Positions 2 to 8,075 of a stretch of 64,000 nt of DNA are shown in pieces (the stretch's first letter is position 1; the number at the start of each line of letters is the position of its first letter). Both the position numbers and the translations under genes were made by a program. Source of the DNA: Planctomycetota bacterium (GTDB taxonomy: Bacteria > Planctomycetota > JAJSAM01 > JAJVHW01); assembly GCA_965248445.1 (NCBI GenBank), contig CBDFJG010000004.1:1344001-1408000 (forward strand). The letters are read 5' to 3'. The notes under the pieces are model-generated. The model saw nothing but the letters and a program-made list of their open reading frames with translations. It was not told where the DNA came from and made no database searches.

Positions 2-2173
2 GAGGGCGACCGGACCCTCTTCTTCGACTTCCTCCCGATCCCGCTCGGCAGCGTCGGGGGGTTCAAGGTCCGGCTCCAGGGCTTCACCGTGCCCGGTCAG
101 GTGAAATACAACCTGACCCGTCGCTTCGTGCTGCGGGGCGCCGATGCCGTCATCTTCGTGGCTGACTCCGGCGCAGAGGCGTTCGAGGCCAACGTGCTGT
201 CGCTGCGATCGCTGCACGAGAACCTCGCTGTGAACGGCCTCGAGGCCACCGGTCTCCCGATCCTCATTCAGTACAACAAGCGCGACCTGCCCGACCCCGT
301 CGAGATCGAACGCCTGCGTGAGGCTCTCAACGACGCAGGGTGGCCCGAGTACCCGACGACCGCGACGACCGGCGGCGGCGTGTTCGAGGCGTTCCGCCAC
401 GTCTCGTGCGACATGCTCGAGTCACTGGCGCGCGAGTACGGGTTCAGCGAGGGCGAAGCAGCGCGCGAGGAGGTCGCGACTCGTCTCACGACTGTTCAGC
501 GCGCGTACGACGCGCTGCCGGCCGACGAGTTCGAGGTCACCGCCAACGCGCCGTCGCCGCTCGCTGCTGACGACGGGGCCGACGAGGCACGTCTGGCACC
601 GGTGATCGAGGTGTCGGGATCGCCCGACGAGGGCGAGGCGAACGTCGAGGAGCTGCTCGAACGTGCCGTGGACACGCACATGGAGGCCGCGCGCCTCATG
701 TCGGAGTTGCACGCGACGCGCACGGATCTCTCCGACCGCGTGAATCAGCTCGCGGCTCTGCACGAGACGGGCGTGCTCATCTCGAGCGAGCTCGACGGCA
801 AGAAGCTCCTCGAGCGGATCCTCGACCGCGCCCTCTCGACCGTCGGCAGCAAGTACGGCAGCGTGCTGCTGGTCGATCCCGTGGACGGCCAGCTCACCAC
901 GGATCTCGTGCGTGGGTACACCTGCGACCCACTGGCGCTCGCCGGCGCCGCGCCGCCGGAACTCGCCGAGCGCGTGCTCGCCGGAGAGGCGTTCGCGGTG
1001 CGTTCCCAGCTCGAGCCCGGGCTGTTGAAGGCGCCCTTCATGAACGTGGATCCCCCCGCACTCGCCCTGATCTCCCCGATCGTGCACCAGGCCGAGGTGC
1101 TCGGCATCCTCACTGCGTACTTCCCGACGGATCCGGGGGACGACTGGGCGCGCAACCGCGCGCAGTTCCTGTCGGCAGTCTCCGCCCAGGCCGCGGCCGC
1201 GCTCGTCAACTCGCGTCTCTACGCGCGCATCGAGGGGTTCAACCGAGAACTCGAGCGCAAGGTCCGCGAGCGCACTCGCGCGCTACGCCGCGCATATCGG
1301 GACCTGCAGCAACTGGACGGCCTGAAGGACGACTTCCTCGCCTCCATGAGCCACGAGTTGCTGACGCCGCTCACGTCGATCACCGGCTTCGCCGAGATCC
1401 TCGAGACGACCGCCGCGGACGAGGGCGGCGACGCCGCGGAGAACCGGCACGAGTTCGCCACCATCGTCCGTCGGGAGGCGGGCAACCTGACCGCTCTCGT
1501 ACAGACCGTTCTCGACCTGTGCACGCTGGAAAGCGGACAGGCGCCACTGCGCACGGGCATGGTGAACGTGCGCGACACGCTCGAGGGCGCGTATCGAGAG
1601 ATGCGTGGCGCGTTCAAGGACCGGGCGATCCGGGTCCGCGTGCGGGTCGAGGAGAACATGCCTCTGGTCCATGCGGACGCCGCCTGGCTCGAGCGCGTCT
1701 TCGCGTCGCTGCTCTCGAACGCCCTCAAGTTCTCGCCGTCCGGTGGCGAGGCGTCGGTCTCCATCCGGCGCCACGGCACGAACGTCTTGGTCGACGTGAC
1801 CGACGAGGGTCCGGGTGTCCCCGCGGCACTCCGAAAGGTGATCTTCGAGAAGTTCAAGCAGGCCGGGGACCTCCTGACCGAGAAGCCCGAGGGGCTGGGC
1901 CTGGGTCTTCCCATGGCGCGGCTCATCGACGAGGGCATGGGCGGACGCATCTGGTACGAGACGCCGGAGGGCGGCGGCAGCGCGTTCGCCTTCATGTTGC
2001 CGATCGAGGCGCCGCCGGAGCCGTCCGGACCGCCCGCCCCCCGCCGGGAGGACGCGATCGACCTGGAGGACCTCGACGACGATCTGGACGAGGAGTCCGG
2101 GGATGCGGTGACCTCCCCGAGCCCACTGTCGTACGACGGGGCCGAGCCCGCCGCCAAGTCGCCCGCCGAGTAG
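2..2173 (+). CDS. MglA-like small GTPase fused to GAF and histidine kinase (HisKA + HATPase); 5' end lies outside the window
   Basis: The frame is open from base 2: EGDRTLFFDFLP...FTVPGQVKY...VIFVADS...YNKRD are MglA G-motifs. Then a GAF-like region, H-box FLASMSHELLTPLT, N-box NALKFS, and G boxes DEGPGV and GLGLGL. Confidence 0.85.
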   Translation, partial: EGDRTLFFDFLPIPLGSVGGFKVRLQGFTVPGQVKYNLTRRFVLRGADAVIFVADSGAEAFEANVLSLRSLHENLAVNGLEATGLPILIQYNKRDLPDPVEIERLREALNDAGWPEYPTTATTGGGVFEAFRHVSCDMLESLAREYGFSEGEAAREEVATRLTTVQRAYDALPADEFEVTANAPSPLAADDGADEARLAPVIEVSGSPDEGEANVEELLERAVDTHMEAARLMSELHATRTDLSDRVNQLAALHETGVLISSELDGKKLLERILDRALSTVGSKYGSVLLVDPVDGQLTTDLVRGYTCDPLALAGAAPPELAERVLAGEAFAVRSQLEPGLLKAPFMNVDPPALALISPIVHQAEVLGILTAYFPTDPGDDWARNRAQFLSAVSAQAAAALVNSRLYARIEGFNRELERKVRERTRALRRAYRDLQQLDGLKDDFLASMSHELLTPLTSITGFAEILETTAADEGGDAAENRHEFATIVRREAGNLTALVQTVLDLCTLESGQAPLRTGMVNVRDTLEGAYREMRGAFKDRAIRVRVRVEENMPLVHADAAWLERVFASLLSNALKFSPSGGEASVSIRRHGTNVLVDVTDEGPGVPAALRKVIFEKFKQAGDLLTEKPEGLGLGLPMARLIDEGMGGRIWYETPEGGGSAFAFMLPIEAPPEPSGPPAPRREDAIDLEDLDDDLDEESGDAVTSPSPLSYDGAEPAAKSPAE

Positions 2174-3833: not shown

Positions 3834-4571
3834 ATGATCCCTCCGAGTGATCCCGATTGGTTCGTCTCGGCGTTCGGCCGCGAGTACCTGCGCGTCTACG
3901 CGCACCGCAGCGACGCCGCGGCGAGGCAGGAAATCGATTTCGTGGCGTCCGCGCTCTCGCTCGGCGACGGGGATGCGCTGCTCGACGCGGGTTGCGGCGC
4001 AGGCCGGCACGCCCGCGCGCTGGCCGCAGCCGGGGCGCGCGTGATCGGCCTCGACCTCTCCCTCGACTTGCTGTCTCGTGCGAGCGACGCGGGCGGCGGT
4101 CCAGCGTACGTGCGCGGAGACTTGCGCGCTCTCCCGTTCGCTGATGCGGCGTTCGCACACGTCGCCTCGCTGTTCACGTCGTTCGGGTACTTCGACGACG
4201 CGGGCAACGCGGGACAACTCCGCGACTTCCGGCGCGTGCTGCGCGCTGACGGCCGCTTGTTCCTCGATTACATGAACGCCGAACGCGTCCGGGCGACTCT
4301 CGTACCGCGCAGCGATCGCACGGAGGACGGTGTCCGTTTGCTCGAGGAACGGCGCATTCGCGCCGGCCGCGTCGAGAAAGACGTGCGCGTGGAGCGCGAG
4401 GGTGAAGAGACGATGACGTGGACCGAGTCCGTCCGGCTCTACGACTGCGACGAGGTGCAGGCGTTGGTGCGCGGCGCACGCTTCGAGGTTCGCGACGTCG
4501 CGGGTGACCTGTCGGGAGCGCCGTGGACGAGCATGTCGCCGCGCACGATCATCGTCGGAGTCGCGGCGTGA
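3834..4571 (+). CDS. Class I SAM-dependent methyltransferase coupled to bshC (NmbA-like candidate)
   Basis: LDAGCGAGRH, GLDLS, GDLRALPF, FTSFGYF; its stop overlaps the bshC start (GTGA). Confidence 0.85.
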   Translation: MIPPSDPDWFVSAFGREYLRVYAHRSDAAARQEIDFVASALSLGDGDALLDAGCGAGRHARALAAAGARVIGLDLSLDLLSRASDAGGGPAYVRGDLRALPFADAAFAHVASLFTSFGYFDDAGNAGQLRDFRRVLRADGRLFLDYMNAERVRATLVPRSDRTEDGVRLLEERRIRAGRVEKDVRVEREGEETMTWTESVRLYDCDEVQALVRGARFEVRDVAGDLSGAPWTSMSPRTIIVGVAA

Positions 4572-6130
4572 CGGTCATCCCCCCCGCCGATCTTCTCGCG
4601 GAGGACACGCTTGCGCGCGCGCTCGTGACGGGCGACCCGCGCGTTGCCGGGCTCGTGCGCGGCGCCGATGGCGACGAGGCCGCCCTGCTTGCGGCGGCGC
4701 GGGAGGCCGCGACGCGCGACATCGACAGGACCGCACTCGTGGATGCGCTGGTTGCCGGACTGGACGACCTGGACGCCCCCGACGGGGCGCGCGCCGCCGC
4801 GCGGCGGTTGGGAGAATCGGGTGTCGTCGCCGTCGTGGCGGGTCAGCAGCCCGTTCTGCTCGGCGGAGCCGGAATGGTCCTGACCAAGGCGCTCGCAGCT
4901 GCCGCCGTCGCGGCGCGTCTCGAAGCCCACGGCATCCCCGCGGTGCCGGTCTACTGGCATGCGAGCGAAGACCACGACCAGGGCGAGGCGGACCACGTCA
5001 GGCTCCTGACGGCCGACTGCGAGTCGTTCGACTCGTTCCGGCTGGCGTTGCCGGAGGACGGACGAACGCTCGCAGCGACCGCGCTCCCGCCCGGCACCGG
5101 GGATCTCGTCGCGACAGCGACCGCTCGGCTCCCGGACGGTGACGCCCGCGAGCGCATCCTCGAGTTGCTGGCGCCGCGCGACGGCGACACGTTCGGCCGT
5201 TGGACCGGCCGGCTCGTGGCGGGACTGCTGGGGCCACTGGGCATCGTCGTCGTGGAGCCCCACCGGCTGCGCCGGCTCGCCGCCGGGGTGACGCAGCACG
5301 AGCTGACCCATCCGCACGAACTGCACGCACGGGTCTCGGACGTCCTGCGCCGCCTCGAGGCGTCGGCGCCGGAGATCACGCCGCCCCTCGATCTGGCGCG
5401 CCCCGAGCTCTTGTTCCTTCTCGACGACGGCGTGCGGAGGGCCATCACGATCGACGCGGCGGCGGGCACGTACGCGACGCGGGCCGGGCCGGCCGGAGAT
5501 CTCGCGGCGCTGCGCGCCCGTGACCCGTCGGAGTTCTCTTGGAACGTCGTGGCGCGGGTCCTGGCTCAGAACACGGCCCTGCCCGTCGCGGCGCAACTCT
5601 GCGGACCCTCCGAACTCGGGTACGTCGCGATGTTCGGCGATGCGCACGAGGCCCTCGGACTCTCCCAGCCGGCCACACTGCTGCGTCCGGGGCTGACAGC
5701 CGTGCCGCGCAAGGCTGCCCGGGCGGCTCGGGCGCTCGACGTCGACACCGCTGCGGCGGTGCGCGGGGCGGCGGACGCGCTCAGCCCCGCCCTTGACGGA
5801 CCCGCGGCGGAGGCGTTCGGGGAGGCGCTCCGCGCACTCGAGGCGCTCCCAGAGGGCCGCAGTCCGGCGGTCGAGCGGCGGCGGGCTGAGCTCCTGCGCC
5901 GGCTGTCGCTGTTCGAACAGGCCTACCGCAGCGAGTACGAAGACCTCGACGCGACCCGCAGGAGACGCCTCCGCTGCCTGAGGACGTCCCTTCGGCCGCG
6001 CGATGGCCTCGCTGAGCGCACCCTCTCTCCCCTCACCTGGCTTGCCAGAGAGGGCCTCACGGCGCTGCCGAGGGTGCGCGACCTCCTGGACCGGCTCGAT
6101 GGCGGGCACGTGGTGGCGGAACTCGGATAG
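4568..6130 (+). CDS. bshC: Bacillithiol biosynthesis cysteine-adding enzyme BshC
   Basis: AGQQPVLLGG, YWHASEDHD, FSWNVVAR, GPSELGY and C-terminal LRP.DGLAER; adjacent to bshB and bshA. Confidence 0.85.
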   Translation: MTVIPPADLLAEDTLARALVTGDPRVAGLVRGADGDEAALLAAAREAATRDIDRTALVDALVAGLDDLDAPDGARAAARRLGESGVVAVVAGQQPVLLGGAGMVLTKALAAAAVAARLEAHGIPAVPVYWHASEDHDQGEADHVRLLTADCESFDSFRLALPEDGRTLAATALPPGTGDLVATATARLPDGDARERILELLAPRDGDTFGRWTGRLVAGLLGPLGIVVVEPHRLRRLAAGVTQHELTHPHELHARVSDVLRRLEASAPEITPPLDLARPELLFLLDDGVRRAITIDAAAGTYATRAGPAGDLAALRARDPSEFSWNVVARVLAQNTALPVAAQLCGPSELGYVAMFGDAHEALGLSQPATLLRPGLTAVPRKAARAARALDVDTAAAVRGAADALSPALDGPAAEAFGEALRALEALPEGRSPAVERRRAELLRRLSLFEQAYRSEYEDLDATRRRRLRCLRTSLRPRDGLAERTLSPLTWLAREGLTALPRVRDLLDRLDGGHVVAELG

Positions 6131-6204
6131 CGTGTTCGTGCGTTCCCCCCGGGAACGACACGCCACCGACCGTCACACCCCCCGACCGCTAAGACCTCGA
6201 GGAG

Positions 6205-6939
6205 ATGACCCAGATGATCGACGTGCTCGCCTTCGGAGCGCACCCCGACGACGTGGAGCTCGCCATCGGCGGGACCATGCTCCGGCTGCGGGATGCCGGG
6301 CTCGCGCTCGGGGTGGTCGACTTCACGCGGGGCGAGCGCGGGAGCCGCGGTACCCCCGAGACCCGCGCCGCCGAGGCCGCGAAGGCGACGGAGATCATGG
6401 GGCTGGCCTTCCGTGAGACGCTCGACTTCCCCGACACCGAGCTCCAGCCGACCCTCGAGCTCCGCCGGGCCGCAGTCGAGGCGATCCGCCGCCATCGGCC
6501 GAAGATCATCCTCGCGCCTCTCTCGCACGACCTCCACCCCGACCACGCGGCTGCGGGGCAGGCCGTTCACGACGCGTTTTACCCTTCGGGCATGCGCAAC
6601 GCTGACGCCGCGGGGGAGGCGTACCGGCCGCTGCGGCTACTCCAGTTCGCGATGCACCACGAGGAGGGCAACGGGGTCGTGGTCGACGTGACGTCCGTCT
6701 GGCAGGAGAGGTTGGAACTCGCGCAGTGCTTCGCCAGCCAGCTCCACGCGCCGCCGCCCGGCACCGAGGGGGCTGACTTCCCCACCCTGATCGCCCGCGG
6801 TGACTTCCTGTCGCGAATCGCCGCGCGGGCGCAGGTCTGGGGACGCCGCGCCGGCGTCGTGTTCGGCGAACCGCTCTATCCGCTCGGCGCGCTGCCGATC
6901 ACCGACCCGCTCGCACTGCTCGTGGAGCCTCTGTCGTGA
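6205..6939 (+). CDS. bshB1: GlcNAc-malate deacetylase BshB1 (PIG-L family)
   Basis: AFGAHPDDVEL, TRGERGSRGT, HPDH, CFASQ. Confidence 0.88.
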   Translation: MTQMIDVLAFGAHPDDVELAIGGTMLRLRDAGLALGVVDFTRGERGSRGTPETRAAEAAKATEIMGLAFRETLDFPDTELQPTLELRRAAVEAIRRHRPKIILAPLSHDLHPDHAAAGQAVHDAFYPSGMRNADAAGEAYRPLRLLQFAMHHEEGNGVVVDVTSVWQERLELAQCFASQLHAPPPGTEGADFPTLIARGDFLSRIAARAQVWGRRAGVVFGEPLYPLGALPITDPLALLVEPLS

Positions 6940-8075
6940 GCGATCGCCTGCGCATCGGGATCTGCTGCTACCCGACGTACGGCGGCAGCGGCGCCGTCGC
7001 CACCGAGCTCGGGCTCGCGCTCGCGGCGCGCGGCCACGAAGTCCACTTCCTCTCCTATGCGCGCCCGGCCCGGCTCGCGGGGTTCCACGCCAACGTCACG
7101 TTCCACTCGGTCGAGGTCTCGCAGTACCCGCTGTTTCGGTACCCGCCCTACGACCTGGCGCTGGCGTCCGTGATGCGCGACGTAGCGGCTCATCACGATC
7201 TCGACGTGCTCCACGTCCACTACGCGATCCCCCACGCGGTCTCAGCCATCCTGGCGCGCGAGATGCTCGGCGGTGGCCGCCGCCCGCGCATCGTGACCAC
7301 CCTGCATGGCACGGACATCACGATCGTGGGCGCGGAGTCGACCTACGTCCACCCGACGCGCTTCGGAATCGATCGCAGCGACGCGGTCACGGCGGTCTCG
7401 GGCTGGCTGCGCAAGGAGACCGACCGGATCTTCGCGCCGAAGAACGACGTGCAGGTGGTCCCCAACTTCGTGGACGTCGAGCGCTTCAAGCCGATGCGGT
7501 GCGAGGCGACGCGCACGGGTCTCGGCTTGTGCGACGAGCTCTGTCTGGCCCACGTGTCGAACTTCCGCCCGGTCAAGCGTGTCGAGGATGTGGTCCGCAT
7601 CTTCGCCCGGGTCGCGCGCGAACTCCCCGCACGCCTCGTGCTGGCGGGCGACGGTCCCGAGCGCACCCGCGCCGAGGCGATCGCTCGCGAGGAGGGTGTG
7701 TTCGATCTCTGCCGGTTCCTCGGCGAACAAGAGGAGATCGAACGCGTGCTCGCGTGTGCGGACCTGTTCGTGCTCCCCAGCGAGTCGGAGTCGTTCGGAC
7801 TCGCCGCACTCGAAGCGATGGCCTGCGGCGTACCCGTGCTCGGGACGCGTGCGGGGGGGCTGCCCGAGGTCGTCGCCGACGGCGAGACCGGCATTCTGTT
7901 CGAGATCGGCGACATCGAGACAGCGGCGCGCGAGGCGGTTGCCCTGCTTCGTGACGACGCGCGGCGCACGAGGATGGGTGCGGCGGCGCGGGAGCGCGCC
8001 GTCGCGCGCTTCGCCGAGAGCGACGTGGTTGCGCAGTACGAGTCGCTCTACCGCGGCGCCGCAGCGCTCGTCTGA
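6936..8075 (+). CDS. bshA: N-acetyl-alpha-D-glucosaminyl L-malate synthase BshA (GT4)
   Basis: GICCYPTYGGSGAVATELG, HVHYAIPHA, TTLHGTDIT, HVSNFRPVKR, ESFGLAALEAM. Confidence 0.95.
   Translation: MSDRLRIGICCYPTYGGSGAVATELGLALAARGHEVHFLSYARPARLAGFHANVTFHSVEVSQYPLFRYPPYDLALASVMRDVAAHHDLDVLHVHYAIPHAVSAILAREMLGGGRRPRIVTTLHGTDITIVGAESTYVHPTRFGIDRSDAVTAVSGWLRKETDRIFAPKNDVQVVPNFVDVERFKPMRCEATRTGLGLCDELCLAHVSNFRPVKRVEDVVRIFARVARELPARLVLAGDGPERTRAEAIAREEGVFDLCRFLGEQEEIERVLACADLFVLPSESESFGLAALEAMACGVPVLGTRAGGLPEVVADGETGILFEIGDIETAAREAVALLRDDARRTRMGAAARERAVARFAESDVVAQYESLYRGAAALV

Follow-up and report, generated by a model that had tools for sequence, protein, structure and literature searches.

Can a bacterial Ras-like GTPase be built into a histidine kinase, and would its G domain then serve as an input module of that kinase or as an address label? 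The question is raised by the first gene of a 64,000-nucleotide stretch of Planctomycetota DNA (assembly GCA_965248445.1, contig CBDFJG010000004.1, positions 1,344,001 to 1,408,000; G000:C4:1344001-1408000 in genome coordinates, where G000 is the genome of the stretch), which we call the window. Bacterial Ras-like GTPases have been treated as single-domain polarity switches, and their main survey was limited to proteins of 150-240 aa (PMC4316618; this and the other papers are cited by accession, each for the accessible part of its text). The gene at the window start encodes an MglA-type G domain, a GAF domain and a HisKA/HATPase core in one chain, hereafter MglA-kinase. We found that this MglA-GAF-HisKA-HATPase fusion is a real, conserved family, apparently undescribed, which is made from known parts.

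Architecture of MglA-kinase

In the window the gene is a single open frame of 723 aa (2-2173, + strand) which runs off the window start. The upstream DNA of the genome supplies an ATG at C4:1343855, 145 bases 5' of the window, giving a protein of 772 aa (P0001), and the 49 residues gained in this way carry an intact P-loop, G19-A-A-L-S-G24-K25-T26-T27, just where a sequence-only reading of the window had advised looking for one. Residues 1-193 aligned with M. xanthus MglA (5ymx) ungapped and in register (phmmer, E 4e-56), and the best Foldseek match of the protein model was MglA-GTPgammaS (6h17, TM 0.93 over the target). Foldseek matched kinase cores and MglA structures separately, each over part of the model, with no listed match spanning both. 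Pfam placed GAF at 316-450, HisKA at 491-561 and HATPase_c at 608-718, all above cut-off.

The MglA signatures DRTLFFDF, TVPGQ and NKRD, together with the Arg, on which the sequence-only reading had based its assignment, are indeed present at residues 52-59, 78-82 and 141-144, and a further motif that it gave as VFVADS is also there, trivially misspelled, as VIFVADS. It was also right that G domain, linker, GAF and HisKA/HATPase share one frame, and its 'coiled linker' resolves into three parts. An AlphaFold2 single-chain model, built from a 47-sequence alignment (mean predicted local distance difference test, pLDDT, 84; predicted template modelling score, pTM, 0.59), shows after the G domain an extra helix (200-220), disorder (231-256, variable among homologues) and a long helix (264-311), followed by the GAF and ATPase domains, with a helix (429-520) that runs unbroken from GAF into the DHp domain. 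Contacts between domains are not given by this model at its pTM of 0.59. No membrane helix was found in the protein (19-residue hydropathy maximum 1.5), which is soluble and probably dimeric. Among the best 25 NCBIfam models shown, no kinase cut-off was passed; a sequence search of solved structures returned no GAF match that could hint at a ligand, and a promoter scan found none, as chance predicts. A listing of RNA data carrying the gene was empty, which bears on its expression in neither direction.

Conservation and reality of the fusion

A homologue search with residues 1-330 gave 1392 matches among 8000 scored candidates. Following the suggestion of the sequence-only reading to search for the combined MglA, GAF and HisKA architecture, segment profiles recognised the whole G-linker-GAF-DHp-ATPase order in 79 proteins, query included, among the 120 matches listed. 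They come from JGI, NCBI, ENA and Logan assemblies, the 78 others being mostly 40-60% identical to the query, and the few organism labels on the matches say Planctomycetota. Of the 17 genomes in the window's Planctomycetota order, 15 carry the gene, none of them with a stop inside the match; the two in which it was missed are 79% and 90% complete. An unconserved linker, and the existence of each half as a separate kind of protein, would suit a passive or artefactual fusion, but the 78 whole-length homologues from four sources and the uninterrupted match in 15/15 order genomes ruled out a misassembly or read-through that joins two independent genes, and with the gene order also conserved we give this explanation next to no credence. 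One contig in each of two sequencing runs spans the gene with zero differences; these runs are from the same sample, possibly the source of this DNA, and are not independent.

Conservation is strongest in the G domain, which has 43 invariant positions among the 79 homologues, against 11 in DHp, six in the ATPase domain, four in GAF and none in the linker, whose length ranges from 19 to 53 aa. K25, T26, T27, R53, T54, F56, F57, D58, T78-Q82, N141, K142 and D144 are invariant, G19 and G24 are likewise kept in 79/79 and F59 in 77/79, while in the kinase part H500, E501, T504, N622, G654, G680 and G682 never vary. Judged by these kept catalytic residues both halves of the protein look active.

Two homologues of other make-up were noticed. 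In P0009 (906 aa, one contig) a downstream glutamine amidotransferase replaces the kinase ATPase domain, probably through a deletion or assembly error, and one order genome (G013) carries a second MglA-GAF-kinase fusion (L054:7006-9327) with another kinase lineage and Pro21/Lys53.

Gly21 and Arg53 in fused and stand-alone forms

Of the 79 fusions, 58 have Ala, 20 Pro and one Gly at position 21, the equivalent of Ras G12 (the query has Ala), whereas 29/29 canonical-type MglA copies have Gly there. We then counted unique sequences, taking length plus position 28, or else a match to the ATPase domain, as the class criterion; rows of another length (27), truncated or with GAF only (17) and from outside the subgroup (52) were set aside. 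G21 and R53 were both kept in 72/77 stand-alone rows versus 1/113 kinase-fused rows, and all five whole G-GAF-ATPase fusions among 80 metagenome loci have Ala21. In T. thermophilus MglA the change G21V lowers kcat 7-fold (PMC3000849), and the orphan MglA of Bdellovibrio, which has Ser21, was proposed to be permanently GTP-bound and unipolar (PMC3983030). With Ala or Pro at this position the domain would lean towards the ON state and would hardly act as a fast toggle.

A different pattern was seen in a set of GAF-less MglA-kinase fusions (L130-L132, P0087, P0110), in which Gly21 is kept, Ser or Ala replaces the Arg53 finger, and the kinase is an unrelated one with an H-D-L-x-x-P box.

Locus, genome context and the kinase-less orthologue

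Of 20 loci fetched, 14 are orthologous and the other six are different fusions that do not share the gene order of these 14. Downstream of the gene lies pyrF in 14/14 orthologous loci, a cysteine-desulfurase-like gene stands head-to-head with it in 13/14 (one is cut by the contig end), and 10/14 reach dnaA. The neighbours are housekeeping genes (dnaA, dnaN, gyrB, trpG/pabA, pyrF and bsh-like genes); in the window's genome dnaA is two genes away, and the contig reaches its cumulative GC skew minimum within about 20 kb.

The sequence-only reading had also recommended a look for a neighbouring mglB. There is none: all three Robl_LC7 matches of the genome are on contig C1 and adjoin another mglA, in a canonical operon (G000:C1:410519-413803, L003-L006) of TPR-roadblock, roadblock, MglA and roadblock genes, which is kept in 16/16 relatives of the order (L061-L076). 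Neither a roadblock nor a receiver match was found in the fusion loci of 14/14 relatives. The MglA of the C1 operon has 388 aa with a Pro/Ala/Gln-rich tail that ends in a strongly hydrophobic 19-residue stretch (2.7), from which it is probably membrane-anchored; hydropathy of at least 2.1 was noticed in 20/29 canonical-type copies, several of the remainder being cut by contig ends.

The closest receiver domain in the genome is 136 kb from the MglA-kinase gene, and no cognate response regulator was identified among the genome's receiver domains. This distance, with the receiver-free loci of the relatives, would fit a reverse flow of information, in which the GAF-kinase, as the input, governs which nucleotide the G domain carries or whether it is released, and the G domain is the output, with no need for a response regulator. 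Versions with G domain and GAF only, and versions without the His, also exist, and for conservons Wuichet and Sogaard-Andersen propose that the output is the GTPase (PMC4316618). But the DHp domain is a standard HisKA with invariant His500 and E-x-x-T motif, and of the genome's 31 receiver matches 14 lie more than 5 kb from any kinase and are possible partners; we regard reverse flow as unlikely.

A search of shorter proteins revealed a group of 216-225-aa GTPases with the same extra helix. When 301 genomes of the phylum were searched with one such stand-alone GTPase, 32 matched at E 1e-62 or better, namely 13 fusions of the window's order, 11 stand-alone GTPases from four other families, three G+GAF proteins without a kinase and five GAF-less kinase fusions. 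All 11 stand-alone loci (L081, L116-L125) have the gene head-to-head with the same desulfurase-like gene and 9/11 reach dnaA; the three G+GAF genes (L126-L128) are also beside dnaA. In these loci the trpG-pyrF-bsh block has the opposite orientation to that in the window's order. No kinase or roadblock match was found in the fetched DNA of the 11 loci. A split form of the fusion was likewise not seen: no stand-alone gene (0/11) has an adjoining kinase, and in the 80 metagenome loci three MglA genes adjoin GAF genes, but these encode GGDEF (2) or cyclase (1) proteins, not kinases. On metagenome contigs, long-tailed MglA genes abut or lie near GAF-GGDEF or GAF-cyclase genes at L165:3998-7266, L179:2479-5047 and L210:1-4876.

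Four Planctomycetota families keep the ~220-aa orthologue, an orphan MglA paralogue, next to dnaA. Since it occupies the same locus without a kinase, the G module has a conserved job which needs no kinase. The position near dnaA and the skew minimum, together with the loss of G21, could be taken to mean that a hydrolysis-blunted G domain informs the kinase of the cellular GTP/GDP or (p)ppGpp pool, perhaps in connection with replication, but the place beside dnaA is common to the kinase-less orthologue and to housekeeping genes and so may be inherited gene order, and we consider such a metabolic sensor very doubtful.

Evolution of the G domain and its attached modules

In the G-domain tree the roadblock-coupled MglA of the same genomes stands outside a single clade (100/99) that unites the kinase-fused, GAF-only and stand-alone forms. 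The tree nests the stand-alone forms inside the kinase-fused ones, with a weak backbone (90/75, 90/71, 95/71), and a constraint keeping the 16 kinase-fused rows together was not rejected (approximately unbiased test, p-AU 0.32); on these data the G-domain tree decides neither a fusion-first nor a stand-alone-first order. The attached kinase cores fell into five groups when placed among 20 background kinases of G000. One group lies inside a 96/98 clade of background kinases, which implies at least two capture or swap events of the kinase; support for the remaining separations was weak. Leaving aside the three cores of the group inside the 96/98 clade, whose H-box lies before the slice, six of the 23 fused cores showed no His-box by pattern. 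Other domain fusions of MglA-like proteins were observed in 7/12 proteins scanned in the phylum, with Ser/Thr kinases (5), a pentapeptide-channel protein (1) and STAS-TIR-WD40 (1).

One way to read the fused clade would be that its kinases are switched directly by a covalent Ras-like G domain, with GAF as a second input, and that the MglA paralogue was attached to different kinases more than once, each time blunting hydrolysis through change of G21 to Ala or Pro or loss of R53. We hold this to be possible though rather unlikely; if direct switching were true, G-protein input to a phosphorelay would be a general, undescribed design in Planctomycetota and perhaps in other phyla.

The five MglA-Ser/Thr kinase fusions (L057:2-1846, L058:2516-4621, L059:831-3326, L060:7731-11138 and L080:2860-5169) are from three other Planctomycetota genomes, with three copies in G037; they are conceptually nearer to Roco proteins than MglA-GAF-HisKA is, and several have degenerate switch motifs. 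Genome G024, with 11 MglA-like matches, carries the MglA-like protein with pentapeptide repeats and an ion-channel domain (L077:2059-4368) and the one with STAS-TIR-WD40 (L078:1606-5385).

Proposed mode of action

The reading that we prefer, tentatively and at somewhat under an even chance, is that a slow-cycling, GTP-biased G module docks in trans and thereby places or licenses a GAF-regulated kinase. According to this docking model an orphan group 1 MglA paralogue at the N-terminus would be flexibly tethered to a HisKA sensor kinase/phosphatase. It would bind GTP-Mg and, because Gly21 is Ala or Pro, hydrolyse it slowly or resist the action of a GTPase-activating protein. In the GTP state it would bind in trans, through switch I and the beta-2 face, the same partner or cell landmark as the stand-alone orthologue, and this docking would set where or when the kinase meets its response regulator. 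By established two-component knowledge the kinase half would be a conventional cytoplasmic GAF-regulated kinase/phosphatase, with GAF and the signalling helix setting the kinase/phosphatase balance in the usual way. Slow intrinsic hydrolysis, or a roadblock protein from the separate mgl operon, would reset the module; MglB is reported to act on the orphan SofG in trans (PMC11016934).

Docking is favoured by a face kept alike in fused and stand-alone forms, a tether that is predicted to be floppy, an attached module that varies and a P-loop change suggestive of a long-lived GTP state. Neither F56 nor F57 varies in any fused (79/79) or stand-alone (86/86) row, and the F56/F57/F59 surface of MglA binds MglB (PMC6785124). 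The module behind the G domain may be any of five kinase groups, GAF alone or the partners in the other MglA fusions, as would be expected of an address tag. The likeliest biological context would be type IV pilus polarity. The genome has six PilT-family matches above cut-off (C3 and C4) plus five further pilus/secretion ATPase matches and no flagellin match, which suggests a pilus-rich, non-flagellated cell. The fusion also points to an Mgl-type polarity system of uncultured Planctomycetota that has so far gone unstudied.

Several observations weigh against the docking model. The association of fusion with G21/R53 loss amounts to only two independent tree contrasts, which puts significance out of reach; P0031/L045 keeps both residues, as does a G-PAS-HATPase-like-REC protein on a metagenome contig (L199:3974-6361), and 5/77 stand-alone rows are without G21 or R53. 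Arg53 and Gln82 are invariant in 79/79, which implies that hydrolysis still matters and that a plain ON lock is too simple a description of the G domain. What Ala or Pro does at position 21 is extrapolated from Val and Ser, and in Ras G12P is known as the one G12 change that is not activating. Moreover, residues K181/K185 of the pocket for the MglB C-terminal helix are not kept, and the 92%-complete genome has no match to bactofilin, the partner of SofG in Myxococcus. No binding partner, ligand or response regulator of MglA-kinase was identified, and N48, D52, R94 and R196, which are fusion-specific, could equally mark an interface in cis.

Such an interface would be used if the tethered G domain docked, in one nucleotide state, on a part of its own dimer (the coiled coil, GAF or DHp) and switched the kinase/phosphatase balance as an allosteric gate. 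The retention of the fusion in 15/17 order genomes, invariant R53 and Q82, a conserved motif in the helix before GAF, five G-module positions specific to the fused form, and the change of hydrolysis residues where a kinase is attached (112/113 unique fused rows without G21 or R53) all argue for this. But the linker is disordered and of 19-53 aa, the G domain is equally conserved in the kinase-less orthologue, and a single fixed interface is hard to reconcile with the unrelated kinases, the kinases without the His and the tails of GAF alone that follow this G clade. A gate in cis is compatible with the docking model, might act alongside it and is its strongest rival; we consider it possible though rather unlikely. 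The sequence-only reading had inferred a GTP/GDP-gated sensor kinase; the architecture it described stands, while direct gating becomes one of several readings in view of the kinase-less orthologue at the same locus, the disordered 19-53-residue tether and the Ala or Pro in place of Gly21 in 78/79 proteins.

Having GTPase, GAF and kinase in one soluble chain makes their coupling testable with one purified protein, and nature provides controls in the kinase-less orthologue, the GAF-only, Arg-less and His-less forms and the one member that keeps Gly21.

Comparison with known systems

An intrinsic Arg beside the G2 Thr defines group 1 MglA (PMC4316618). MglA-kinase has the P-loop GxxxxGK[T/S], the Arg finger next to the G2 Thr (R53-T54), TVPGQ and NKxD, in 79/79 proteins. 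With the group 1 MglA of M. xanthus and T. thermophilus (5ymx, 6h17, 3t12) it shares the fold, the ungapped alignment over 1-193, R53, T54, D58, TVPGQ, NKxD and F56/F57/F59. Unlike them it has GAF-HisKA-HATPase attached, the extra helix 200-220, Ala/Pro21, no K181/K185 and no adjoining roadblock gene. With 772 aa and several domains it falls outside the single-domain, 150-240 aa range of the survey (PMC4316618), and with Gly21 replaced and no mglB within four genes it is not part of a canonical MglA/MglB module. M. xanthus SofG and Bdellovibrio MglA, likened here by description, are likewise orphans without a coupled mglB, and the latter also has a non-Gly residue, Ser21 (PMC3983030), but both are single-domain proteins.

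The conservon (AGPS: CvnA kinase, CvnB roadblock, CvnC, CvnD GTPase and CvnF GAF protein) has the same three module types and no response regulator in the locus (PMC4316618, PMC8510531, PMC13343842). Its modules, by contrast, are separate proteins, the kinase sits in the membrane, the GTPase is of group 2 and has no intrinsic Arg, and the operon also contains roadblock and DUF742 genes. Membership was rejected, MglA-kinase being one soluble chain with group 1 motifs and housekeeping neighbours. As a system in which an MglA-family GTPase works together with a kinase and a GAF protein, the conservon is the closest parallel in function (PMC8510531, PMC13343842).

Roco proteins (Roc-COR, e.g. LRRK2) likewise unite a kinase with a Ras-like G domain in a single chain, where cross-talk between the two is possible, and the sequence-only reading had drawn this likeness. 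The likeness is one of concept only: MglA-kinase has no COR or LRR domain, its G domain is MglA-type (TVPGQ) and not Roc/Rup, and its kinase is of another class, a His kinase. We rejected Roco membership, since Pfam gave no COR, Roc or LRR match at E 0.01 and the structure matches are MglA.

Like cytoplasmic GAF-HisKA-HATPase kinases with a core of the HK853/DivL/WalK type, the protein has intact H, N, G1, F and G2 boxes and a signalling helix from GAF to DHp, and its phospho-acceptor His with a boxed HATPase_c is that of class I HisKA. It differs in its N-terminal G domain and in Leu/Met at H+3, where Arg is usual in HisKA kinases.

In the survey of the MglA clade by Wuichet and Sogaard-Andersen (PMC4316618) 449 of 488 sequences are under 240 aa; the accessible text describes no kinase fusion, the supplementary files searched hold no HisKA entry and the supplementary PDF has no Planctomycetes row. 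The accessible parts of PMC6876712, PMC3521125 and PMC11135422 do not mention such a fusion either. The sequence-only reading knew of no characterised example, and our literature search, which most subscription papers fell outside, likewise found no description of an MglA-histidine kinase fusion.

Feature coordinates

Table 1. Features of the MglA-kinase gene in the window (residue numbers refer to the 772-aa protein).
Feature	Position in window	Strand	Basis or remark
Whole gene part in window: 3' 723 codons and stop of the 772-aa MglA-GAF-HisKA-HATPase gene	2..2173	+	first 49 codons, with GAALSGKTT, lie 5'
MglA-type G domain, residues 50-192 (1-49 outside window)	2..430	+	phmmer 5ymx E 4e-56; Foldseek 6h17
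Switch I / G2 DRTLFFDF (52-59): putative Arg53 intrinsic finger, Thr54, Asp58, beta-2 hydrophobic face F56/F57/F59	8..31	+	conservation; roles from PMC6785124
G3 TVPGQ (78-82), predicted catalytic Gln82	86..100	+	79/79
G4 NKRD (141-144), guanine specificity	275..286	+	N141, K142, D144 79/79
Extra C-terminal helix of G module, residues 193-222, common to stand-alone ~220-aa orthologues	431..520	+	model helix 200-220; alignment
Linker: acidic, unconserved, disordered	521..619	+	pLDDT <50 at 231-256; 19-53 aa in 79 homologues
Long helix into GAF, probably of coiled-coil type	620..790	+	model helix 264-311; 10 positions conserved in at least 90%
GAF domain, weakly conserved	800..1204	+	PF13185/PF01590 above cut-off; 4 invariant positions
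Signalling helix continuous with DHp helix 1	1205..1324	+	model helix 429-520
HisKA/DHp: His500 (1352-1354), E-x-x-T kinase/phosphatase motif, Leu/Met at H+3	1325..1537	+	PF00512; H500, E501, T504 79/79
HATPase_c with N, G1, F, G2 boxes	1676..2008	+	PF02518; N622 79/79, D650 78/79, G654 79/79, G680 and G682 79/79
Acidic Pro-rich tail, unconserved	2009..2170	+	pLDDT <50; missing from most homologues

Elsewhere in the window, at 4523-8075, we noticed a bacillithiol-type cluster behind a methyltransferase gene, with a bshC-like gene (below cut-off) and bshB1 and bshA (above cut-off), which is conserved across these Planctomycetota families.

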